This document shows, piece by piece, positions 1-27,462 of a stretch of DNA of 32,810 nt. The DNA is from a bacterium (lineage in GTDB: Bacteria; Patescibacteriota; JACMRA01). The stretch covers positions 1 to 32,810 of the forward strand of contig JAYUIW010000015.1 in the NCBI GenBank assembly GCA_043765655.1, in the 5' to 3' direction. Both the position numbers and the translations under genes were made by a program. Position 1 is the stretch's first letter. Every line of letters starts with the position of its first letter. A model generated the notes under the pieces. The model saw only the letters and a program-made list of their open reading frames with translations. It made no database searches and was not told where the DNA came from.

Positions 1-20
1 CTAAAATGGTTTTAAACAGA

Positions 21-61
21 TTGTCATTTTGAACGAATGTGAAAAATCCCCTGTTGTTCAA
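21..61 (+). repeat. REP-like palindrome, family A (GTCATTYTGAAC...AATCCCCTGTTGTTCA)
   Basis: Near-identical to 20691-20730 and related to 20591-20630 and, inverted, 20935-20964. Confidence 0.85.
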
Positions 62-105
62 ACCTAAGGTTGTAAATAAGCTATCTTTTTAAGTAAAAAC
101 TTTAG

Positions 106-290
106 CTGTCATCCTGAATTTATTTCAGGATCTAAAATAGTTTTTGTTGAGTTAAGTTGCTTTTTTATAATTTACATGAATTATTGTTTTTTATAATTTA
201 CATGAATTATTGTTTTTTGTAAACTTTAAAATAATTAAGAAAGTCGTATTTGTTAGCTTTTTAGATCCTGAAATAAATTCAGGATGACAG
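106..290. repeat. REPIN/MITE-like unit bounded by a perfect 32-bp inverted repeat (family B palindrome)
   Basis: CTGTCATCCTGAATTTATTTCAGGATCTAAAA at 106-137 and its exact reverse complement at 259-290; further copies at 20646 and 20821. Confidence 0.9.
161..212. repeat. 26-bp tandem duplication
   Basis: TTTTTTATAATTTACATGAATTATTG at 161-186 and 187-212. Confidence 0.9.
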
Positions 291-313
291 TAAACAATGT
301 AAATTGAATAAAA

Positions 314-1126
314 CTACCCTACACTCACAATGATTCCCTGACGATGAACATTCCGCTCGAAGCCATAGTCTGTGTACATTTGAGCAACTGGTTTTTTGGA
401 ATTGGATAGTGTCAAAGTGTCAAAGTCTGCAAAAATTGGATTATTGGCAAACTCTCTCACTAGACTTGTACAGATTAGTGGTAGTTTTTTGGTTTTGGTA
501 AAATTATTATTACCCGTATACCTGCCCGCAACTGCCGTTAATTGCACTTCTTTCCAAGGTTTGGAGTTGTTATCGTAGCTCAAAGCACTAAGGCAGTAAG
601 TTCCCACAATTTCACCAACTTTACTCTTGACAACAAAACAGTTAATTAATTCATCTGCCAAAAGCCGTTCTAGATTATTCTCAAAAAAAGCAATCTTGTC
701 AGGTCTTGGAATGATCGCCTTGGGTTCTCGCTGAAAATAAACTCCATAACTATCAATCAAAAGTTGTTTTATAACACCATAGTCATCAGAGTTCGGTAAA
801 ACCTGAAAAGTTATGAATTCCTGTCCAAACTCCCAAAACCGCATATCACTATTAACCAAACTGTTGGCTTCATCTCGACTAATCGAAAAAAAGTGAGAAT
901 CGTAAGGCTCTATAGTAATATTTAATTCACGGGCCTGAGCTATAATCTCGAAGCACCTTGTGATATCCGCAGAAGTATAAGCATCAAAAACAACTTTAAT
1001 TTTGGTATTTTGTCCCAAAAGATTAGCTTCCAAATCATTGATAAGTTCAACAATTCTATCAAGACTGAGCCCAGAAGGTATTGTCAAAAAAACACTTCCT
1101 GCCAAGTCAAATATTGGTTGTAACAT
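314..1126 (-). CDS. Hypothetical protein with possible C-terminal GNAT acetyltransferase fold
   Basis: 270 aa ORF; CFVVKSKVGEIVG strand pattern and terminal VAQMYTDYGF resemble GNAT motifs. Confidence 0.45.
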   Translation of the reverse strand: MLQPIFDLAGSVFLTIPSGLSLDRIVELINDLEANLLGQNTKIKVVFDAYTSADITRCFEIIAQARELNITIEPYDSHFFSISRDEANSLVNSDMRFWEFGQEFITFQVLPNSDDYGVIKQLLIDSYGVYFQREPKAIIPRPDKIAFFENNLERLLADELINCFVVKSKVGEIVGTYCLSALSYDNNSKPWKEVQLTAVAGRYTGNNNFTKTKKLPLICTSLVREFANNPIFADFDTLTLSNSKKPVAQMYTDYGFERNVHRQGIIVSVG

Positions 1127-1178
1127 AATAATAATCTTGAACTAAAATTTTGTTTTTGTAAATAATTTTGTTTTTACA

Positions 1179-1216
1179 CCTCCTGTATAAGGGTTAAGGC
1201 AAAGCATTCGGGGTTG
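1179..1216 (+). repeat. REP-like family C element
   Basis: GGGTTAAGGCAAAGCATTCGGGGT resembles the reverse complement of 20745-20782. Confidence 0.7.
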
Positions 1217-1249
1217 CTACTTTTAGACGTTAAAAAGCATAACCTCAGA

Positions 1250-2800
1250 TTACTCTTCTTCCCCACTTTCTACCACTTCTTTTCTAACCAAAACATCTCG
1301 CTTGAGGCGAATCTTGCGTGATAGTTCCATCTCGTTAACGCTCAAAGTAGTTCCAGCAATATCAGTAACAATTTGGATTTGTTTGCCAACCATTGCGTTG
1401 AATAGTGAACTTTTACCAACATTAGGCTTACCAAGGAACAGAATTTTGGGAGGAAGTGGATCTTTGTTTTCTAGAATTTTGAGTTCTTTGTCTAGATTAG
1501 TCTCGCCTTGAGTATAGTGAATTGTCTTGAATCCCATAACTTTGGCAGCTTCGATATTAATTTTTTTGTCGTCCAAGAACACACATTTGTTGGCTTTGAG
1601 ATCATATCTCTCTAATAATGTCTTAAAAATTGCCATTTCTGGTTTGCGACAATCGGCTTCACAACTAGCAATGCCTCCATCAAAGAACTTATAAATCGGG
1701 CTTTGGCGACGCTTAAAAATACTATTCCCAATATTAGAAATGTAGTAGATATTTTTGCCAAGACTTTTTTGATATTTGATAAAATTACAGACTTCGATAT
1801 TTTCGGTAGCCAAATCATCCCAAAGCTGCTTGTACTTGTTGAACTCAATTTTGCGTCCTATTATCTTGTTGATTTCTTTTTTGAGATCAGCTGTGAACTG
1901 GTGTTCGTGTAGCTTTGAGTCGAATTCAATATAAGCTCTACGAATCTGGCTTTTTTGATCTAAGGTAAGATCGTAATCATTACCTAGAATCTCCAGCGAC
2001 TTATTAATTCCGTCCTCGAACACAACGTTATAAAAGTCAAAAATTAGCGTGTCTACATCATTCAGAGCCTTGTATTCTGCTTCTTCGTTGAACGATTCGA
2101 ACAGCCCATCGTTTTGACGAATTACATATGTTCCATCGCGAGTTTTTTCTACTTTTTTTAGCTTTTGGTCGATTTTGGGAGCTATATTCTTGATGTCAAA
2201 AAGTTCAGGGGCAATATTAGTATCAAAACCCATAATCGACAGTTGACTGACAATTTCGTCGCACAATTCTCCCAGATTATAGCCAGTATTACAACAGATA
2301 TTAATGAATCCATTCCCACCAAGGCGAGCATATTCTGCAATTGATTTATCTAAATTTGGATCGTCGACTTTGTTAATCGCGATGATAAAAGGTTTGCCAG
2401 TTTGCCAGATTTTCTTGATGATTTTGTCACTAATTGAATCGACATTCTGCTTACGATCGATAACCCACACCAGAAGATCAGCCTGAGCAATTGCTCCCCA
2501 AGATTTGATTTGAACTTCTTTTTGGATTTGGTCTTGTGGATCTGGAACTAGTCCGCCTGTATCTACGATTTTGAAGTAATTATTAACCCACTCGACTTCG
2601 CCGTTGTTGAGATCTCGAGTTGTATGCTCTTCCTTAGCGACGATTGCAACTTTGGTTTCGCACAGACGATTGACAAGGCTAGACTTCCCAGCATTAGGCA
2701 GTCCGATTAGTGCAACTAGAGGAATTTTGGTGGAGGTTGTTGACGGAGTTTCAGAAGAATTGAAGACTGAGCTGGAATTTTGGAGTGAATTGTTTTTCAT
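1250..2800 (-). CDS. der: Der/EngA GTPase N-terminal part: GD1, inserted HAD phosphatase domain, first part of GD2; lacks rest of GD2 and the KH domain
   Basis: GD1 GLPNAGKS, TTRD, DTGG, NKVD; HAD motifs IFDFYNV, ISN, KPEMAIF, FLDDKKINIEAA; second P-loop GKPNVGKS and IAGTT followed by TAA. Confidence 0.85.
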   Translation of the reverse strand: MKNNSLQNSSSVFNSSETPSTTSTKIPLVALIGLPNAGKSSLVNRLCETKVAIVAKEEHTTRDLNNGEVEWVNNYFKIVDTGGLVPDPQDQIQKEVQIKSWGAIAQADLLVWVIDRKQNVDSISDKIIKKIWQTGKPFIIAINKVDDPNLDKSIAEYARLGGNGFINICCNTGYNLGELCDEIVSQLSIMGFDTNIAPELFDIKNIAPKIDQKLKKVEKTRDGTYVIRQNDGLFESFNEEAEYKALNDVDTLIFDFYNVVFEDGINKSLEILGNDYDLTLDQKSQIRRAYIEFDSKLHEHQFTADLKKEINKIIGRKIEFNKYKQLWDDLATENIEVCNFIKYQKSLGKNIYYISNIGNSIFKRRQSPIYKFFDGGIASCEADCRKPEMAIFKTLLERYDLKANKCVFLDDKKINIEAAKVMGFKTIHYTQGETNLDKELKILENKDPLPPKILFLGKPNVGKSSLFNAMVGKQIQIVTDIAGTTLSVNEMELSRKIRLKRDVLVRKEVVESGEEE

Positions 2801-2810
2801 ATATATCTAA

Positions 2811-2839
2811 AGTATGTTCCCAAAAGCCTTTTTTGTCAA
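2811..2839 (-). promoter_or_regulatory. sigma70-type promoter of der
   Basis: TTGACA (2839-2834), 17 bp, CATACT (2816-2811). Confidence 0.6.
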
Positions 2840-2990
2840 AGTTATACCAATATCACTTTCAAGTTTTACAAAACACCTTCCAAAAAGCAACCAAATTCCT
2901 TTATTTCAAAATGTTTCTAGATAAAAGTCAGTCAATGTTCATATCAACTTGGATACAAATTATTAAGTTATAGTATTGATTGGTGCGCAA

Positions 2991-4187
2991 TTATTTTCCA
3001 AAAAGATTTTTGAAGAAGTTCGAAACATTATTTGAAACCTGCGAACCTTTTTTAGAAGCGTAATTCGCCATCTTTACCAGTGGATTATTACTTATATATC
3101 TACCACGTCTTTTAATAAAAATTTCTTTAGTCAAAACGTCTTCACCTCGTTTTTTCTTGTCAAACTTGGTACGATAGTCAGCAATAGCTCCCTCAAAATT
3201 AGTATATTTATCGTATTTAACACCAGTCAGATCGGCACCACGCAAATCAGCACCTTTAAGATTAGCACCTTTAAGATTAGCACCTCTAAAGATTGATTCG
3301 CTACAAAATGTATCTTGTAAATCAGCCTGACGAAAGTCAACACAATTTAAGTCACTTCGTCGTAGTTTTGCCCCTCTAAGACAAGCTTGTAATAATTTTG
3401 CAGACTGTAAATTAGCTCCATCTAAACAAGCACCAGTTAGATCAGCTTCCATAAAATTAGAATATTCCAAATTTGCTCTAATAAAATCGACTTCTCTAAC
3501 TTTAGCTTGACTAAAATTACAAAGGATTAAGCTACAACACTCAAAACTTGAACAAGACAAATCACTGTTCTCAAAACTTATTTTTCTAAATGTATATCCT
3601 CTAAAATCTCTATCTGTTGCAGTTTGATTTGAACCATTAGTAATATGCAACTTAGAATCTTTAGAACCTCTTTTGTTAAACTCAGAATTATCTTCTTCAC
3701 TGTATTTAGTAGTTTCTGCACTAATATTAATAGTTTGAGCTGGTTCAACTTTTGATTCCACTTCAGATAAAATCGGCCCGAACTTCAAAGATTGAATATC
3801 TATAGCATTAACTAAAGCAGCATTACGCTTTTCTAATTCTTGAATTTTAAAGTTGCTAATATTGTTTATTTCATATCTTTCTATAGGCTTACCTTCCTTA
3901 TCAAAAGATAAGTATAATTCAACACTTGAAGATTGTGAAGGTCGAATTTCATCAAAAACTAACATATCTAAAGTAGGTTTAGAATAACTGTCGCTAAAGC
4001 TACGCTTAGCTAAATTTGTAGCAAAATTACCTTTATCTGAATTTAGGTCTTCAGCTGTAATAATCGGCATTCCGACTGGTTCTTTACTTTTTTTAGATGT
4101 TAAAGAAGCTTGTTCTGATGTAATTTTTACTGTAGGTAATCTTGATTTAGATTGTTCTTGTTGTTGTTTTGGTTGTTCTGATGACAT
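2991..4187 (-). CDS. Pentapeptide repeat protein
   Basis: Many A(D/N)LxG-type repeats, e.g. GANLKGANLKGADLRGADLTG, after a low-complexity N-terminus. Confidence 0.9.
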   Translation of the reverse strand: MSSEQPKQQQEQSKSRLPTVKITSEQASLTSKKSKEPVGMPIITAEDLNSDKGNFATNLAKRSFSDSYSKPTLDMLVFDEIRPSQSSSVELYLSFDKEGKPIERYEINNISNFKIQELEKRNAALVNAIDIQSLKFGPILSEVESKVEPAQTINISAETTKYSEEDNSEFNKRGSKDSKLHITNGSNQTATDRDFRGYTFRKISFENSDLSCSSFECCSLILCNFSQAKVREVDFIRANLEYSNFMEADLTGACLDGANLQSAKLLQACLRGAKLRRSDLNCVDFRQADLQDTFCSESIFRGANLKGANLKGADLRGADLTGVKYDKYTNFEGAIADYRTKFDKKKRGEDVLTKEIFIKRRGRYISNNPLVKMANYASKKGSQVSNNVSNFFKNLFGK

Positions 4188-4220
4188 AATAGTTAGTGTG
4201 ATTTTATAATTACTTTTAGT

Positions 4221-4249
4221 ATTGTATCACACTTTTTTACCTTTGTCAA
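4221..4249 (-). promoter_or_regulatory. sigma70-type promoter
   Basis: TTGACA (4249-4244), 17 bp, TACAAT (4226-4221). Confidence 0.65.
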
Positions 4250-4320
4250 ATCATACTTTTTAAGTTTTCAAAACTTTTTTTGGTGATTAATTTTTATTTT
4301 TATTCCTACTCCCAAAAACA

Positions 4321-4776
4321 CTAAAACTTCTGCGTGAACCCAGATTCATTCTTGGCGAATTCCACACTAACAAAGCACACATCAGGCTTTATTTTGTCAT
4401 ACGTTTTGTATGTAGAATCGTAGAATTTGTTACCACCAGTTGTGAATTTACCTTTGATTGGATGTGTATCAGGGCATTTTGGTTCTTGGTTGGCTTTGAC
4501 CCAGTACACACCTTGGGTCGGAATAATTTTGAGATTATCAGCTTTGGTTGTTGGTTTTGGGTTGTCGATGTCTTGCTTTACAACTGTTGCAAGGACTTGA
4601 TTTATTCCAGTCTTATGCCCAAAATAAAAGCCAATTCCAAACACAAATATTATGAGAGTAATACTAATTCCATAACTTATTATTTTATTTTTGTTCAAAG
4701 TGCTAGCAAAATCAGTTACCGAGTTTTGGAGTAAGTTATTATTATTGTCTTGTGTTGGCGGAATAGCGATTGACAT
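4321..4776 (-). CDS. Membrane-anchored protein with C-terminal CP..IKG..Y..CF (sunset/Ada-like) small domain
   Basis: One TM helix; CPDTHPIKGK...Y...PDVCFVSVEFAKNESGF. Confidence 0.5.
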   Translation of the reverse strand: MSIAIPPTQDNNNNLLQNSVTDFASTLNKNKIISYGISITLIIFVFGIGFYFGHKTGINQVLATVVKQDIDNPKPTTKADNLKIIPTQGVYWVKANQEPKCPDTHPIKGKFTTGGNKFYDSTYKTYDKIKPDVCFVSVEFAKNESGFTQKF

Positions 4777-4891
4777 ATTATTAGGTGTGTTATGTTAGAA
4801 TCTATGGTTTGATTTTGGGTTTTAATTTTATATTTGTATTAACTTAGAAAGTTACAGTTTTCATATTATTCAAAAAGCATTTGTAAAAATT

Positions 4892-5836
4892 TTATCCTCC
4901 ACAACTACTTTTGTCTAGTTTGACCATGTTCTTGAATCTTGCCTGAATCTGATCTGCAGTTGGCTCTGTAGGTTGCACGAATATTACAACATCTCCAAGA
5001 AAATTATTAATACTTTTGAGCTCTTGACCAGTTACTGGATCGAGTTGTGGCTGTGTTGAAGAGTCGTTACCAAAAGAACTATTGGAACTTGTATTGTCAA
5101 CAATTTTGTTATTTAGACGCTCAGTATTTTTTTGTTGTCCGATTTCGATAAGATGTTTTTGAGCTTCGGCGTCGGTTGTGTGTTCCACTTCATTGTGAGC
5201 TAGAACTTTTATACTTGTCATAATATCACCAAAGCTTTCCAAAGCTCCATAGCGTTGAATGTCCTTGCGAACTTGGGATTCTATACCAAAAAATTGTTCA
5301 AAACTATTGTCTTTAAAATTATCAAATGTCTTTTTCTCAAAGCTCCAGTCTCCAGTCGCATTCCCTAAGCTATCCAAATTTTCTTTGCCAGTATAAATCC
5401 AAAATTGATCTTCTGATCTTGGCTTTGGAAGATCTTTACCATAGATCGGTACAGGTGTAACGCTGGGCAAAGAGTCTAACTTGAATCCCATATAGCCATC
5501 TAACCCGCCAATGTAGTTTAAGCCATAAAATTTTAGGAACTGTCCACCTGTGACATTAGCCCAGTGAAGATGTTGATAGTCTGGCTTGTTGTCATGGAAG
5601 TGCAATGGCGATGTCGTCAAAGATCCGTTACAAATATCTTTTGTATAGTCTGTCTGATATCTAGGCGAGCCAAAATCCTCTTCTTGTCCATTAAAGACGT
5701 ACTTAATCCTAAAATGTGCATGATCTTGAGTGGGAAAGGCAATATTTTCTTTGGATAATCCATAGCGAAGAGTTAGATATGTTGCACTAAGTATGAATAT
5801 AATTATTAGGAGTAATGCGGTAATTTTTTTAAACAT
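4892..5836 (-). CDS. Secreted/membrane-anchored His-rich hypothetical protein
   Basis: N-terminal hydrophobic segment; DHAHF, LHFHD and HLHW motifs; C-terminal CGG. Confidence 0.6.
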   Translation of the reverse strand: MFKKITALLLIIIFILSATYLTLRYGLSKENIAFPTQDHAHFRIKYVFNGQEEDFGSPRYQTDYTKDICNGSLTTSPLHFHDNKPDYQHLHWANVTGGQFLKFYGLNYIGGLDGYMGFKLDSLPSVTPVPIYGKDLPKPRSEDQFWIYTGKENLDSLGNATGDWSFEKKTFDNFKDNSFEQFFGIESQVRKDIQRYGALESFGDIMTSIKVLAHNEVEHTTDAEAQKHLIEIGQQKNTERLNNKIVDNTSSNSSFGNDSSTQPQLDPVTGQELKSINNFLGDVVIFVQPTEPTADQIQARFKNMVKLDKSSCGG

Positions 5837-5996
5837 ATTGAAGTAAAATTAGGTTTTTGATAAAAGTTAAAAATTGGGTTAAAAATTAGTCTAAATTAGG
5901 GAGCTAAAAATGTTATAAATACTAAAATATATAATGTCTATACTATCCTTAAATTATATTAATATTGTATTTTTTGTGCAAGCCCCAAAATATTTT

Positions 5997-6025
5997 TTGA
6001 CAAGCAAGCATAATTCAAGTAACCT
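5997..6025 (+). promoter_or_regulatory. sigma70-type promoter of the typA fragment (leaderless position)
   Basis: TTGACA 5997-6002, 17 bp, TAACCT 6020-6025, ATG at 6033. Confidence 0.65.
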
Positions 6026-6032
6026 CAAGAGT

Positions 6033-6785
6033 ATGACTGATAATATCAAAAAGCACCTCCAAAACCTTGGAATATATACCGATGTAAAGGCAATCCTCAA
6101 ACAGCTCGCCGACGGCAAAACTGATCCCAAAACTGCAAGCCAAACAATTACAACCATGATCAACGACTCGTTCAAAGTCGATACTGGAGTTAATCCGCTA
6201 CAAATTTTGGTTCTAGCGCTCAACTATGATTCATTCAAAGGAAAAATGGGTGTTGGAAAAATTATCAATGGAAGCATAACCAAGGGACAATCTATCATTG
6301 CGATCCAAGAAAACGGCATTAAAAAAGGTCGTGCTAGCTCAATTTTAACTTTTGATGGTCTCAACCTCAAAGAAATTGAATCTGCTCAAGTTGGTGAAAT
6401 CGTTATGGTTGCTGGATTAGAAGATGTAACTATTGGAGATACAATTACCACGCCAGAATTCAACAAACCCCTTCCAAGAATCAAAGTTGATGAACCAACG
6501 CTGCGAATTGTAATCGGTGTAAATACTTCTCCATTCTCTGGTAAAGAAGGCAAGCTCGGAACTAGCCGCCAAATTCGCGAAAGATTAATTAAGGAATTAG
6601 AAACTAATATTGCCCTTAGAGTAGAAGATTATCCAGGCTCAGCCGATAAATTCGTAGTCAGTGGTCGTGGAGAACTTCACCTTAGCGTACTAATCGAGAC
6701 AATGCGACGCGAAGGATTCGAACTCGAAGTCAGTAAGCCACAAGTAATCTTCAAAACAGCCTTAGAATTAGGTATTGAAATATAA
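6033..6785 (+). CDS. typA: TypA/BipA fragment with domains II and III only, plus a ~45 aa foreign N-terminal extension
   Basis: PLQILV..LNYDSFKG, IGDTI, VDEPTL, VNTSPFSGKEGK..TSRQIRERL, SGRGELHLSVLIETMRREGFELEVSKPQVI; no G domain or C-terminal domains; ATG 6033 preferred over 5934 because of promoter position. Confidence 0.88.
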   Translation: MTDNIKKHLQNLGIYTDVKAILKQLADGKTDPKTASQTITTMINDSFKVDTGVNPLQILVLALNYDSFKGKMGVGKIINGSITKGQSIIAIQENGIKKGRASSILTFDGLNLKEIESAQVGEIVMVAGLEDVTIGDTITTPEFNKPLPRIKVDEPTLRIVIGVNTSPFSGKEGKLGTSRQIRERLIKELETNIALRVEDYPGSADKFVVSGRGELHLSVLIETMRREGFELEVSKPQVIFKTALELGIEI

Positions 6786-6821
6786 ATAACTGATAATTTT
6801 TTTATAAGCTCTGTGAATAAC

Positions 6822-6848
6822 ATCTCCACAATTATGGAGGTTTTTTTT
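6822..6848 (+). terminator. Intrinsic terminator after the typA fragment
   Basis: CTCCA-caatta-TGGAG stem followed by G and T8. Confidence 0.7.
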
Positions 6849-6928
6849 GATTAATAAAATTATTGATAAATCAACATAACTTTTAACTTTTGCAAAACAC
6901 CCCTTGAAAAGAACATATATCTATTTCG

Positions 6929-6990
6929 CTAAAGACATTCTAATTAATTACTCCTTGATAAAGGGGTGAGCCGAATGGCTCGGAGATTTT
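6929..6990 (+). repeat. REP-like family C element
   Basis: CTAAAGACATTCTAA...AAGGGGTGAGCCGAATGGCTCGG shared with 24748-24855 and 20866-20907. Confidence 0.85.
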
Positions 6991-7212
6991 ATATTAAAAG
7001 ATAAATACTGAAATAGGTAAAAATTACTTCAAATTAAATTATTTTTGGGTCAAAGCCGGTCAAAGTTAACATAGATTCAAGTATAAAATAGTTCCTTTAT
7101 CTTTTATTTAACTTCGTATAAAAAATATTAATCATAGCCAACAAAGTCCAAAATAATATTAAAAACCTTCAAAATACTAAGTTGAATTGAAGTTGAATTG
7201 AAGTTAATCTCT

Positions 7213-7241
7213 TTGACAAAGTTAACAGAATAAAGTATTAT
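7213..7241 (+). promoter_or_regulatory. sigma70 promoter of rnpB
   Basis: TTGACA 7213-7218, 17 bp, TATTAT 7236-7241; P1 begins at 7249. Confidence 0.8.
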
Positions 7242-7248
7242 TCCAGTA

Positions 7249-7601
7249 TGGTTAGTTGGACGATGGCTGTTGCAAAACAGAGGAAAGTCGGAACACTAGT
7301 GGACTGCAAAGTTCATTGTGAGTAGCGGGCTTTAATCCGCCGTGGGTAACCATAGGGAGCCCAAAATCGTCAAGAAAGTAAGGCTGAAAAGTGCAACAGA
7401 AAACATACCGCCTTAGACCGTCAAAAGTTCAAGGTAAGGGTCAAAACGTGAGGTAAGAGCTCACGCACGAAGGCTGGCAACAGTCCGTGTGGCAAACCCT
7501 ACTCGGTGCAACCTCAAAAAAGGTAGAGGGCAAAGATAAATCATCGTCTCTGCGATCGTCAAAACATCGTAACAGACAGAATTCCGCTTATAGACTAACC
7601 A
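7249..7601 (+). ncRNA. rnpB: RNase P RNA
   Basis: GAGGAAAGTC, AGTGCAACAGAAA, GGTAAGAG, GGCAAACC, ACAGAATTCCGCTTA; P1 TGGTTAGTT/GACTAACCA; P2 GACGATG/CATCGTC. Confidence 0.96.
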
Positions 7602-7617
7602 AATCAAAATAAATCAA

Positions 7618-8521
7618 ATGTCTGAGCAAATCAAAGAAAAATTATTTAATAGAAGGGAAATATTAAGTGTTTTATTATTGCTAACATCTTTTCCAAGTCT
7701 ACTTTCAAATATTTTTTTTAAAATAGTACTAAAAAAACCAGAATTATTAAGAGGTATTAAAGATAAAATACCCAAGTCTAAAACTGAATCAAAAGTTGAA
7801 GATTCTGTATTCTTGTATAACGGTGCTAAAAATTACTTTAATATTGAAGTAGAGCATGACGATAAAAAATTAGAAAAACAAATTGAATTAATCTATCTAC
7901 AACTATCAAAATCAGATGTAATATTCATTGAAAGTACCTGGGATGAATTCCCAGATATAAAATCTACATATTTTTCAAAGCTTTCTAGAATTCTTAGAAG
8001 TCAAGATAAAAAAGTTATTGATTTTGATCCTCAAAACATATTTTTTAATCAATCAGTCACAAATGTTGGAGTTTTTTTACAATTACCACTTTATTTAAAG
8101 CTAGAGTTTACATTAGTTGTTGACGAAAAATCTGAAAATTAGACTAATTTAGAAAAAATATTAGAAACAACTCCAAAAAAAATTTTGGGACAATTAGCTC
8201 TTTTATTTGGAATTTCAAACTATGGAATATTTTCAACAGCTGGAACTATTAATTTACTTTCAAGAGATATTTTGGGTACAAATGAATTATTAATAAATAG
8301 TGATATGTCATATACAAGCGATGGAAGAAGTGTTCTTATGGCATATAAAATTTTGGAATATTGCAAAAAAACCAAATAAAAAAATAGCTTCTATTAGTAG
8401 ATACGCTCACGCAAAGCTTATTGGTTATTATCTCAAAAGAGAAAATTTGTTAGAACTAAAACGTAAAATTTATTCAATAATGTATTTTATGTATATTAGA
8501 AATAATTTTAATCAAGAATAA
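7618..8521 (+). pseudogene. Disrupted gene, possibly TraB/GumN-like
   Basis: In-frame TAG at 8140-8142 with the frame open afterwards, then a frame change near A7 at 8365-8371; motifs DVIFIE, DGRSVLMA, SRYAH. Confidence 0.55.
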
Positions 8522-16326: not shown

Positions 16327-17037
16327 ATGACTACAATTAATCCAACCAAAGCCCAACCAATAATCCAGTTCAAAGGTGTACAAAAATACTATATCGTTGG
16401 CAAAGAACAACAGTTAGTTATCAAGGGCGTCGATGTAAATATTATGCGCGGCGAAACTGTGGCTCTGCTGGGTAAATCTGGCTCAGGAAAGAGTACAATG
16501 CTCAATATTCTGGGGCTTTTGGACTTTCCGACCAGTGGAGAATACTTGCTCAATGGGGTTAATGTATCAGGATTCGACGATAATCAGAGATCTGAGATCC
16601 GCAACAAGACTTTTGGTTTTATATTCCAGCAATTTAATCTTTTGCCAAAACTCAATGTAATTGACAATATAACCGCTCCACTTTATTACAACTCCGATAA
16701 GTCCAAGTGGCACAACCGCAAAGAAATTGCTTTAGAACTTCTAGCAAAGTTTGATATCGAAGAACAAGCCTACAAACTCCCCAAGCTCCTCTCTGGTGGA
16801 CAACAACAGCGTGTGGCAATGGCAAGATCGCTAGTTAATGACTGCGATATAATAATCGGAGATGAGCCAACTGGAGCATTGGACTCCAAGACCACTGACC
16901 AAGTTATGGCGGAGATCTTTCGGCTTAATACCGAGTTTGGTAAGTCGGTTATCTTCGTAACTCACGATGATGATCTTGCCAAAAAATTCAGTCGGATTAT
17001 TCGCTTGAAAGATGGAGTTATCGTTGATGAATTTTAA
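16327..17037 (+). CDS. ABC transporter ATP-binding protein (MacB/LolD-like)
   Basis: GKSGSGKST, LSGGQQQRVAMAR, IIGDEPTGALD, VTHD. Confidence 0.96.
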   Translation: MTTINPTKAQPIIQFKGVQKYYIVGKEQQLVIKGVDVNIMRGETVALLGKSGSGKSTMLNILGLLDFPTSGEYLLNGVNVSGFDDNQRSEIRNKTFGFIFQQFNLLPKLNVIDNITAPLYYNSDKSKWHNRKEIALELLAKFDIEEQAYKLPKLLSGGQQQRVAMARSLVNDCDIIIGDEPTGALDSKTTDQVMAEIFRLNTEFGKSVIFVTHDDDLAKKFSRIIRLKDGVIVDEF

Positions 17038-17039
17038 TC

Positions 17040-17110
17040 AATTACTAATTTCTAATTACGAATTACAATTGCTCTTCGTTTTAATAACAAATTTCCAATT
17101 ACGAATACGA
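17040..17110 (+). repeat. Degenerate heptamer array (AATTACG-like)
   Basis: AATTACT AATTTCT AATTACG AATTAC ... AATTTCC AATTACG. Confidence 0.75.
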
Positions 17111-17137
17111 CTAATTTTAACAATAATTTTTAATACT

Positions 17138-17506
17138 ATGAAAGAGAATATAATCCAACAAAAAACTTATAGCTTTGCTTTAGAAATAATTCAATTGTAT
17201 AAAACCTTAACCAAACAAAATGAATACATCCTCTCTCGGCAAATTCTAAAATCAGGGACTTCGATTGGTGCCAATATTGAGGAGACAATTGGAGCTTATA
17301 GTACAGCAGAATTTTTATCAAAAATTTCCATATCGTACAAAGAAGCAAGGGAAACACATTATTGGCTTAGACTTTTAAAAGATTCAGGATATATCGAAGA
17401 ATCGTTATTCAAAAAACTAATTTTTGATTGTGATGAAATTTTTAAAATTATTGGCAAAATACAAATTACAACAAAAGCCAACCAAAAAGAATTAAAAAAA
17501 TCTTAG
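17138..17506 (+). CDS. Four-helix-bundle protein (23S rRNA IVS protein-like family)
   Basis: LSRQILKSGTSIGANIEE, FLSKISISYKEARETHYWLRLL; ATG 17138 preferred. Confidence 0.92.
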   Translation: MKENIIQQKTYSFALEIIQLYKTLTKQNEYILSRQILKSGTSIGANIEETIGAYSTAEFLSKISISYKEARETHYWLRLLKDSGYIEESLFKKLIFDCDEIFKIIGKIQITTKANQKELKKS

Positions 17507-20566: not shown

Positions 20567-20590
20567 TATAATTTATATTATATTTTAAAG

Positions 20591-21093
20591 CTGTCATTCT
20601 GAGCGTAGCGAAGAATCCCCTGTTGTTCAAGTTATATTCCAATTATGTCATCCTGAATTTATTTCAGGATCTAAAATAGTTGTTACTAAGTTGTCATTCT
20701 GAACGAATGTGAAGAATCCCCTGTTGTTCAGGTTACACTTCAACTACCCCGAAGGCTTTGCCTTCACCCCTACATAGGGGTATCTAGTAATTATAACTTT
20801 GATCTGAATAAAAACTCCAACTGTCATCCTGAACTCGTTTCAGGATCTAAAAAGGTTATTATTGATAATTACCCCTTATTAAGGGGTTAGCCGAAAGGCT
20901 CGGGGTTCCTGTGGTAGTTTTTGCTCAAGATCTTGGGGATCTTTCGTTACACTCAAGATGACAGTGTGAAAAAGATTTTAAAATCCTAATAAAATTTCCC
21001 CTAAAATAAGGGGATAATTGTTAATGAAGGCAGGTTTTTTACAAATACCTCGTCGACTTGCGTCGCCACCCCTTTTGAAAAAAAAGGAATTAC
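20591..21093. repeat. BIME-like mosaic array of REP-like palindromes (families A, B, C)
   Basis: A 20591, B 20646, A 20691, C inverted 20745, B 20821, C 20866, A inverted 20935-20964, C-like 20996 and 21046-21093. Confidence 0.9.
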
Positions 21094-24725: not shown

Positions 24726-24747
24726 TCTTCTAATCTTACATATGTCA

Positions 24748-24855
24748 CTAAAGACATTCTAACTAGTTACCCCTTTTTGAAGATACTGGTACAGCCGTAC
24801 TTGATACGGCGACGCATAGTGTCCGAAGGGGTGAGCCGAATGGCTCGGGGATTTT
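24748..24855 (+). repeat. Family C repeat carrying a 46-bp structured insertion
   Basis: Aligns with 6929-6990 except for extra sequence between two GAAG (24779-24782, 24825-24828). Confidence 0.8.
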
Positions 24856-24878
24856 GCTTTAAAAAACAAATTACCACC

Positions 24879-26549: not shown

Positions 26550-27462
26550 AGACCTATTTCCCAATTCATAAAAATTGTTCATAATTGTAGGTATGGATTA
26601 CTACAACAAATATAAACAGTATAAAGATGACAAATTCCTGCGTTTAGTTGGCTTAAACAAGAAAAAATTCGAGATAATTGTAATAGAATTTTTGGACTAT
26701 GTAAATCTAAATACTAACAAAGATTGGAGTCCAAGAGGTAAAAAAGCTAGTTTTAAATTGGTTGACAAACTGCTTTTGACGATGAGATATCTTCGAGATT
26801 ATCCAACTTTTATCGTTCTAGGTCTGGAATTCGGAATTAGCGAAAGCTACGCCAACAAAATATTTAACAAAGTCAGTAAAACTCTCCCAAAACTACCAAG
26901 TCTCAAACTACCAAACCTTAATAATCTTGATGAAAAAGTCCTTGAAAGAGTGATTATCGATGTTAGCGAACAAAAAACTGAGCGTCCAAAAAAAACAAAA
27001 TTCAAAAACTAAAATACAGCGGAAAACAAAAAACTCATACCGAAAAGGCTTTAGTTTGTTACTCTACAGACCTCAAACAAATACTGAGTATTGACACAGA
27101 TTTTAGAAGTGTTCATGATTTTAAGATGTTCAAAAAATCAAAGATTTGGCAGTATAAAGTTGTCAATCAAGCCAATAATCAAGAGTTTGATCTTGGGTTT
27201 TTGGGTGTCAAAAGCTATCTTCCAAATGCCAAAATTCCTCACAAAAAATCAAAAAACAAACCACTTACAGACGATCAAAAAAAGTACAACAAACTCCTCT
27301 CACAAACCAGAGTAAAGATAGAAAACATTAACCGAGAAATCAAAATATTCAGAGTTTGCAAAGAAACTAGACGCCAAAAACAAAAGAAACACAATCTTTT
27401 TTGGAATTTAGTCGCTGGAATAGTTAATCTCAAGCTGAGGTCGTGAATTGGGAAAGAGATCT
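26550..27462 (+). mobile_element. IS5-family (ISL2/IS702-like) insertion sequence, ~913 bp
   Basis: Terminal IRs AGACCTATTTCCCAATTCA vs reverse complement AGATCTCTTTCCCAATTCA (2 mismatches); AAT on both flanks as possible TSD. Confidence 0.9.
26593..27446 (+). CDS. DDE transposase in two ORFs joined by a -1 frameshift
   Basis: ORF1 LLLTMRYLRDYPTF..LG.EFGISES, IIDVSE, ERPKK; A8 at 26988-26995; -1 frame continues QKLKYSGKQKTHT, VHDF, DLGFLG, RVKIEN. Confidence 0.88.

Follow-up and report, generated by a model that had tools for sequence, protein, structure and literature searches.

The stretch of DNA described here, referred to as the window, spans 32,810 nucleotides and constitutes contig C15 (JAYUIW010000015.1) of a draft genome from the Patescibacteriota lineage JACMRA01 (GCA_043765655.1, here G000). 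The draft comprises 1.05 Mb in 84 contigs and is 74% complete by marker count; the G+C content of the window is around 34%. Within its first 7 kb lie two genes for relatives of ribosome-associated GTPases, Der and TypA, each of which encodes only a part of its protein (Table 1). A preliminary description of this DNA had located two partial GTPases here and had proposed that core proteins of the lineage are encoded as dispersed pieces. Profile searches place Der and TypA at the positions claimed, both below the cut-offs of their families: the Der open reading frame (ORF) scores 185.9 bits against a TIGR03594 cut-off of 306.7, and the TypA ORF matches only positions 198–387 of the 594 in TIGR01394, with 233.5 bits against 757.3. 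Both frames are, as had been stated, open up to a TAA stop. An alternative genetic code (table 25) was considered and rejected, as the ORFs are identical under that table and both genes stop at TAA; the standard code applies.

Table 1. Features of the Der and TypA region of the window.
Feature	Position	Strand	Evidence and remarks
Der N-terminal piece, gene of 516 amino acids (aa): GTPase domain 1 (GD1), HAD domain, first third of GTPase domain 2 (GD2), tail	1250..2800	-	ORF list, TIGR03594, Pfam MMR_HSR1 and Hydrolase; stop TAA 1250-1252
Der GD1, TIGR03594 positions 1-161	2237..2722	-	Profile search, E 1.2e-41
HAD-like hydrolase domain between GD1 and GD2, aa 250-441	1478..2053	-	PF00702 aa 250-423, PF13242 aa 384-441
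Der GD2, N-terminal part (P-loop G1, G2/switch I; profile 162-221)	1313..1492	-	Profile search, E 9.1e-12; G domain cut afterwards
Der N-terminal piece, tail of 31 aa	1253..1345	-	Alignments with G001, single-ORF Der of G025 and G014, split Der of G010
TypA middle piece, gene	5934..6785	+	Longest ORF 283 aa from 5934; likely start ATG 6033 (250 aa); stop TAA 6783-6785
TypA middle piece, head of 53 aa	6033..6191	+	Without counterpart in solved BipA; three predicted helices
TypA domains II and III (BipA residues 203-390)	6192..6755	+	Structure alignment; Pfam EF-G_D2, GTP_EFTU_D2, EFG_III; TIGR01394 198-387
TypA middle piece, tail of 9 aa (T-A-L-E-L-G-I-E-I)	6756..6782	+	Alignments; predicted helix 243-249
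Terminator-like hairpin and T-run	6822..6849	+	Stem 6822-6841, 7 pairs, tail TTTTTTTTGAT; 37 nt after TypA stop; consensus match
Dispersed intergenic repeat copy, ~95 nt	2842..2952	.	42-152 nt upstream of Der piece start; self-blastn, up to 19 other copies
Dispersed intergenic repeat copy with hairpin	6915..7024	.	130 nt downstream of TypA stop; up to 35 other copies
RNase P RNA, bacterial class A	7248..7606	+	Rfam, 137.3 bits against a gathering score of 100; full model matched

The Der and TypA pieces and their partners

The remainder of Der is encoded on another contig. Positions 221–430 of TIGR03594 are matched at C54:14987-15619, within an ORF of 534 aa whose first 320 residues form a second HAD domain followed by a charged linker; the order of Pfam domains in this piece is HAD, MMR_HSR1 (positions 41–113 of 113) and a KH-like domain. 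Across the two genes GD1, GD2 with all its motifs from G1 to G5 and the KH-like domain are thus all encoded, in complementary fashion, in three single stretches of 140.7, 42.3 and 144.4 bits, and no single polypeptide reaches the family cut-off for Der. The cut falls inside GD2, behind G2 (switch I) and ahead of G3 (switch II), and alignment indicates that catalytic motifs are kept in both halves. In P-loop GTPases neither half of a split G domain can form the nucleotide-binding fold alone.

The same cut, at around position 221, divides Der into two genes in all five genomes of the genus (G000 to G004) and in G010, G024, G013 and G015. Most genomes of the family have a single Der ORF of 600–890 aa with an insert between the G domains. 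In G014, G021 and G025 the single-ORF Der has an insertion exactly at position ~221, consisting of an acidic linker of around 70 aa in G014 and of two HAD domains in G025. Since single-ORF relatives carry an insertion at the same point, the fission took place inside a pre-existing insertion in the hairpin which follows G2.

HAD-type hydrolase domains occur in Der of this order. The genus of the window has one such domain between the two G domains and another at the N-terminal end of the C-terminal piece, whilst in G025 two occur in tandem inside GD2 of one ORF (1373-4045, minus strand, of a locus on C23). Motif I of the window copy reads D-F-Y-N, the second Asp being absent; the copy on C54 (ORF 568-2169(+) of the C54 locus) differs in having the motif D-x-D-G-V. 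Judged by its domains, Der with HAD would represent a GTPase–phosphatase fusion.

TypA is encoded in three pieces. Counted from the start at 6033, residues 54–241 of the window protein align to BipA residues 203–390 in the structures 8ewh_A and 5a9v_A. These residues make up domains II and III. The choice of 6033 as the start is inferred from the N-terminus MTD.(I/L)KK.LQNLGIY, which is conserved in G002, and from database clusters of 248–250 aa which cover 98–100% of the query. Profile positions 1–207 are encoded on C75 (229 aa from ATG), 198–388 in the window and 389–594 on C53 (221 aa), with scores of 281.5, 231.5 and 219.6 bits respectively. All domains of TypA are present and the profile is tiled once across the three genes, the first piece comprising a complete GTP_EFTU domain and the third EFG_C and BipA_C; no single polypeptide reaches the TIGR01394 cut-off. 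A search of the G000 contigs with the family profiles found no full-length frame for TypA or Der. EF-G is whole, in a frame of 725 aa on C29, as is a frame of 407 aa on C5 which is probably EF-Tu. Partners of both window fragments therefore exist and no full-length copy was found, as expected if the two proteins are encoded in pieces.

Conserved cuts within the order and across the genome

Forty-one genomes were searched with the TypA profile: G000, four others of its genus (G001 to G004), 20 further members of the family, one of the order (G025) and 15 of the phylum. TypA is intact, above the family cut-off, in 24 of the 41. Within the genus the first piece was found in all five genomes, the second in three (with a further one cut by a contig end) and the third in four, and among the matches listed for these genomes none spans more than one piece. 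Elsewhere the pattern varies, with G015 also having a three-way division, G021, G022 and G005 being cut only near 390, and G017 only near 200. The two TypA pieces of G021, a closed single-contig genome, lie 700 bp apart with an opposite-strand ORF of 168 aa between them, and those of G022 are separated by 6 kb that holds ordinary genes. The cuts in both TypA and Der are thus conserved across the genus and some sister genera, whilst other genera and the outgroups have intact genes. A tail of the form KT.EE(V/L)E.. after domain III is common to the genera g1, g2, g12 and g18, suggesting one old fission event at that junction, which trees of single domains cannot confirm. In public protein data stand-alone TypA middle pieces form at least 20 clusters; these are 248–303 aa long including the head, 70–89% identical, cover 98–100% of the query and in some cases lie on contigs of 27–97 kb.

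The 168-aa ORF of G021 (C1:719000-726000, 3545-4051(-)) may itself be the insert at the TypA cut.

The pieces do not evolve neutrally. Comparison of the TypA pieces with their congeners gave non-synonymous divergence (dN) of 0.18–0.28 at saturated synonymous sites (proportion of synonymous differences, pS, 0.65–0.83), and a ratio to synonymous divergence (dN/dS) of approximately 0.09–0.15 in the four comparisons where dS was finite. For the Der pieces dN was 0.41–0.45. Open frames have accordingly been held at saturated synonymous divergence, under purifying selection. The TypA pieces furthermore share 57–74% identity with TypA from eight further genomes of the order (the gene being intact in five), and their terminal branches are similar in length to those of intact genes.

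Other core genes are divided in a similar way. LepA is cut after its G domain: neither the 25 family genomes nor G025 have a frame extending over both parts, and 13 outgroups from the phylum have an intact gene; a further cut near 376–391 is found in G010, G024, G013 and G015. Alanyl-tRNA synthetase (AlaRS) has a cut near 260–275 in G025 and in all but one of the 25 family genomes (24 of 25). The gene is whole in 15 outgroups, and further cuts near 390 occur in eight genomes.

A genome-wide survey was carried out with six-frame ORFs and reciprocal best blastp matches, using the entire G021 sequence and 794 kb from the outgroup G039, whose genome is complete. Of 235 G039 ORFs with reciprocal partners, 16 were covered by at least two non-overlapping ORFs of G000. 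Removal of two contig-end cases (RpoC and a 329-aa protein) and one pair in adjacent frames left 13: TypA, LepA, Der, AlaRS, GluRS, GatB, UvrB, UvrC, PcrA, a PcrA-like helicase, MurE, MnmA and DusB. The apparent division of RpoC was rejected, both of its pieces ending at contig ends, and LysRS and phosphoglycerate mutase, each with a small match at the N-terminus, were left out of the count. PcrA is in three pieces; the second, PcrA-like helicase rests on weak matches. In the reverse direction only one of 236 G000 ORFs was split in G039. For G021 against G039 the figures were nine of 277 and, in reverse, none of 273, two of the nine being adjacent pairs which may be unremarkable or due to frameshifts. 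Two further genes, LigA and RecJ, are partial even in G021 and show additional cuts in G000. At least 13 genes are therefore genuinely split in G000. Together with the partners, the conserved breakpoints and the evidence of selection, this agrees with the central proposal of the preliminary description, namely that core proteins are encoded lineage-wide as dispersed complementary pieces.

Pieces of different split genes adjoin one another at several loci of G000. The N-terminal piece of AlaRS and the G-domain piece of LepA lie 50 bp apart at C24:23959-25555, the N-terminal piece of MnmA adjoins the middle piece of PcrA at C60:2144-3354, and the C-terminal piece of GluRS overlaps a LigA piece at C50:2151-3873. 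The window likewise holds pieces of both Der and TypA.

Splits of this kind could be artefacts of assembly or binning, arising from contig breaks, chimaeras or a mixture of organisms, and the draft does consist of 84 contigs, at the ends of which the supposed splits of RpoC and the 329-aa protein were found. Nevertheless this is the least probable of the explanations considered, and could be set aside with near certainty. Both window pieces lie inside a contig of 32.8 kb with starts and stops of their own, and a 6721-bp contig covers window positions 262–6982 without differences in three DNA runs, which share one study, possibly the window's own source, and were used solely for contig continuity. 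At least 20 independent clusters of proteins, drawn from several data sources, have the same architecture. Its occurrence in the closed, single-contig G021 means that the splits are not a by-product of a fragmented assembly. Decay is slightly less improbable, though still very much so. The pieces would then be pseudogene remnants in a reduced symbiont genome, in keeping with its small size (about 1 Mb) and 34% G+C and with a score below the family cut-off for every piece. Against this, frames have stayed open across species whose synonymous sites are saturated, five species of the genus, along with other genera, share identical breakpoints, the resemblance to other TypA proteins of the order is retained without long branches, and splits are distributed with strong asymmetry with respect to the outgroup (13–16 against one).

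Junction extensions and the question of covalent rejoining

At the cuts the pieces carry extensions of 9, 21 and 31 aa at C-terminal ends, and of approximately 6 (TypA piece 3) and 53 aa at N-terminal ends. In the Der tail the first 12 or so residues (LSVN..L.RK) correspond to the native strand after G2 and are present in single-ORF relatives; the remainder is charged and specific to the lineage. The head of the TypA middle piece is conserved in G002 and G015. An AlphaFold2 model of this piece, built from a four-row alignment, has a mean predicted local distance difference test score (pLDDT) of 68.7 and is thus of modest confidence; it puts helices at residues 3–12, 15–26 and 32–46 of the head, in a block with pLDDT of 70–88, and makes the tail a short helix. 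In the tail of TypA piece 1 the residues A216-E217-F218 are invariant in five of five genomes. Prediction of a complex of the three TypA pieces, with the window piece as partner, gave scores of 0.66–0.68, and a control in which chain 1 was replaced gave 0.77, so that the values count neither for nor against binding.

Aligned to a profile of 12 intact TypA sequences, piece 1 of G000 extends as far as position 218 and piece 2 begins at 189, so that some 30 positions are shared. Within these there is weak alignment of the piece 1 tail to the opening strand of domain II, and of the end of the piece 2 head to the closing portion of the G domain. Piece 1 stops near 201–205 in the four congeners, and the tail overlap is found in G000 only, with low posterior support. 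That heads and tails might be duplicated remnants of the junction is accordingly a weak lead, yet such an alignment argues against calling the extensions foreign. They had been described as short, foreign additions. This description is right only in part: the Der tail has a native beginning, and a TypA head of 53 aa is not short. As judged from these alignments, the extensions are probably not added foreign docking tails.

It is conceivable that the pieces are rejoined covalently by some unrecognised route, such as an atypical split intein, RNA trans-splicing or ligation. Precedents exist. In 'fractured genes' the halves of conserved genes lie at separate loci, as they do here, and are ligated by the split inteins which they carry (PMC2677866); Nanoarchaeum, too, is described as joining split tRNAs. 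The heads and tails are moreover conserved. Nonetheless such rejoining is improbable here. No Hint or intein family of Pfam was matched at E ≤ 0.01 in the window pieces or, at E ≤ 0.001, in the partner pieces, and the extensions are too short for an intein, in which respects the present genes differ from those joined by split inteins. Nor do the translated junctions show a His-Asn followed by Cys, Ser or Thr. Rfam returned no intron family in the window and the three partner loci, RNase P RNA being the only match, and the result for window positions 1–8200 was the same at E ≤ 1. RNA complementarity between cognate 3' and 5' flanks is no higher than in shuffled sequences (|z| < 1), so that a trans-spliced group I or II intron finds no support. 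Finally, each downstream piece opens with a conserved Met of its own, and each upstream one closes with a conserved stop of its own. The view that intein and intron signatures are lacking here has therefore stood up within these searches.

Nor is an endonuclease family apparent at the cuts: the neighbouring ORFs at 314–1126, 4321–4776, 4892–5836 and 7618–8142 have no Pfam match (PHROGs was left out of this search), and the first three of these, like the 168-aa ORF of G021, have no NCBIfam match either. The neighbour at 2991–4187 encodes a pentapeptide-repeat protein according to Pfam.

Proposed assembly of separate subunits, known parallels and genome context

The explanation which we favour, and regard as probable, is that the genes have undergone real fission, that the pieces are kept by selection, and that they are separately made subunits which act together without being joined covalently. 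TypA exists as three genes, encoding the G domain, domains II and III, and domain V with the C-terminal domain; Der exists as two. Each piece, having its own start and stop, would be made as its own polypeptide, and the pieces would meet after translation, probably on the ribosome or on a 50S assembly intermediate, in a non-covalent assembly to which the heads and tails may contribute a docking role. The assembled pieces would then be a multi-subunit equivalent of the single-chain enzyme. The cuts lie at inter-domain linkers in TypA and LepA, and within a pre-existing insertion in a surface hairpin in Der, the fissions having arisen stepwise in an order rich in such splits. A more ambitious version, in which more than a dozen core informational and ribosome-associated genes were split progressively across the order, Der has a GD2 rebuilt from two chains, AlaRS is in two to three pieces, the heads and tails that serve docking derive from the junctions, repeats drove the rearrangement, and TypA is the first non-covalent translational GTPase, is evenly poised between being right and wrong.

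It may instead be that the pieces have been kept but no longer cooperate, each having taken on a function of its own, for example as a stand-alone ribosome-binding module. Such subfunctionalisation would be compatible with the conservation of each piece on its own, with the cutting of the same gene into different numbers of pieces in different genera, which suggests that pieces tolerate varied contexts, and with the status of TypA and LepA as accessory factors. Even so it seems rather unlikely. Among the matches listed, and within incomplete genomes, one piece is usually accompanied by its complementary pieces, and the Der cut puts G1–G2 and G3–G5 on separate chains, neither of them able to make a nucleotide-binding fold by itself, whilst catalytic motifs are kept in both.

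Several points weigh against the favoured explanation. Expression of the pieces and their binding to each other are deduced from sequence. The preliminary description had credited them with promoters of their own, a claim to which comparison with chance lends no support: 36 sigma-70-like sites were counted in positions 1–8200, against 31.0 ± 5.6 in shuffled sequences. As G000 is 74% complete, a full-length copy in its missing part is conceivable for this genome alone, none having been found in the four congeners. The tails taken alone give pN/pS of 0.46–0.69 over 22–51 codons at saturated pS, values which indicate weak or unresolved selection. Trees of single TypA pieces leave open whether the split lineages form one clade, and with it the number of fission events. 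TypA is dispensable in model bacteria. LepA is likewise described as dispensable in such bacteria (PMC4245954). It is therefore conceivable that the joint function of these two proteins has been lost whilst functions of single domains were kept.

Gene fission followed by assembly of the products as subunits is known from other systems. In cyanobacteria and plastids rpoC has been split lineage-wide into rpoC1 and rpoC2, the products of which assemble as subunits; NCBIfam has models for the gamma and beta'' subunits. There one gene is involved and its pieces are adjacent; here more than a dozen genes are divided and the pieces are dispersed. A closer parallel is offered by Nanoarchaeum equitans and other DPANN archaea, in which, according to PMC6349945, many informational genes including those for tRNA synthetases are split at domain boundaries and dispersed in a very small genome of a presumed episymbiont, and close relatives keep single genes, making the splits derived; AlaRS is split in both cases. 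Unlike in Nanoarchaeum, the host of the split genes here is a bacterium, the set includes TypA in three pieces, LepA in two or three and a Der cut within the G domain, and fragmentation is graded, with order-wide cuts supplemented by further, genus-specific ones.

The nrdA gene of phage Aeh1, an essential enzyme gene, has likewise become two genes with terminal tails at the cut. According to PMC3045599, the junction tails are required for an active, non-covalent enzyme, and neither RNA or protein splicing nor rearrangement of DNA is involved. By analogy with Aeh1, separate polypeptides acting together would be the most economical reading for the present genes. The phage gene differs in having been cut by a homing endonuclease gene, mobE, with its pieces remaining adjacent; here no endonuclease family was found in the neighbours, the pieces are on different contigs, and the tails seem native or duplicated at least in part. 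What would be new is thus a bacterial, order-wide and graded case, in which TypA comes in three pieces and LepA in two or three, and Der is divided within a G domain. A literature search of limited range, which did not extend to supplementary files, found no description of such splits in the Candidate Phyla Radiation or Patescibacteria, and a survey of translational GTPases (PMC4342817) contains no passage on split, fragment or truncated forms.

If the pieces do cooperate, they would provide a natural domain dissection of GTPases of the EF-G family and of a P-loop G domain, showing which chain breaks are tolerated and which minimal elements hold such machines together on the ribosome. They would also offer a bacterial comparison to Nanoarchaeum, with a bearing on whether genome reduction in episymbionts generally leads to gene fission. 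On a practical level, split markers score below family cut-offs and are therefore called partial, or generic 'GTP-binding protein', by annotation pipelines. They may in this way depress estimates of completeness. Marker completeness is 64–93% in the 25 family genomes (86% in the closed G021) and 87–100% in the 15 phylum outgroups.

Short dispersed intergenic repeats of several families, with at least five other copies, make up 3.16% of the genome, and copies lie close to both window pieces. A repeat occurs within 250 nt of 13 of 31 junction-side flanks, compared with 182 of 818 for other conserved ORFs (odds ratio 2.5, Fisher p 0.016), and in six of 25 outer flanks of the same split pieces. 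The association of repeats with junctions is modest, and the flanks are not independent. One family of hairpin repeats mostly follows gene ends. The idea that the repeat of ~95 nt acts as a mobile promoter was not supported, the copies having no consistent orientation towards gene starts. Window positions 2850–3000 have 25 matches in the genome, themselves included, and summed depth is raised in the bin 2701–3000 and, at the second repeat, in the bin 6901–7200. Further repeat segments of the window are located at 1–62, 94–292, 20579–20965 and 24737–24871.

A distinct element of 185 nt is found at 106–290, with perfect terminal inverted repeats of 32 nt and an internal tandem duplication of 26 nt at 161–212. 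Positions 90–300 have 142 blastn matches in the genome and a summed contig depth of approximately 1800–3800, against about 20 nearby, and the element looks like a very abundant repeat resembling miniature inverted-repeat transposable elements. The gene for RNase P RNA is placed between the TypA piece and the next ORF. Further along the window a pair of short ORFs in succession on the plus strand (26575–27446), 145 and 106 aa long, looks like a broken mobile-element gene, and an ORF of 164 aa (17012–17506, plus strand) is wedged between an ABC ATPase gene and its permease gene.

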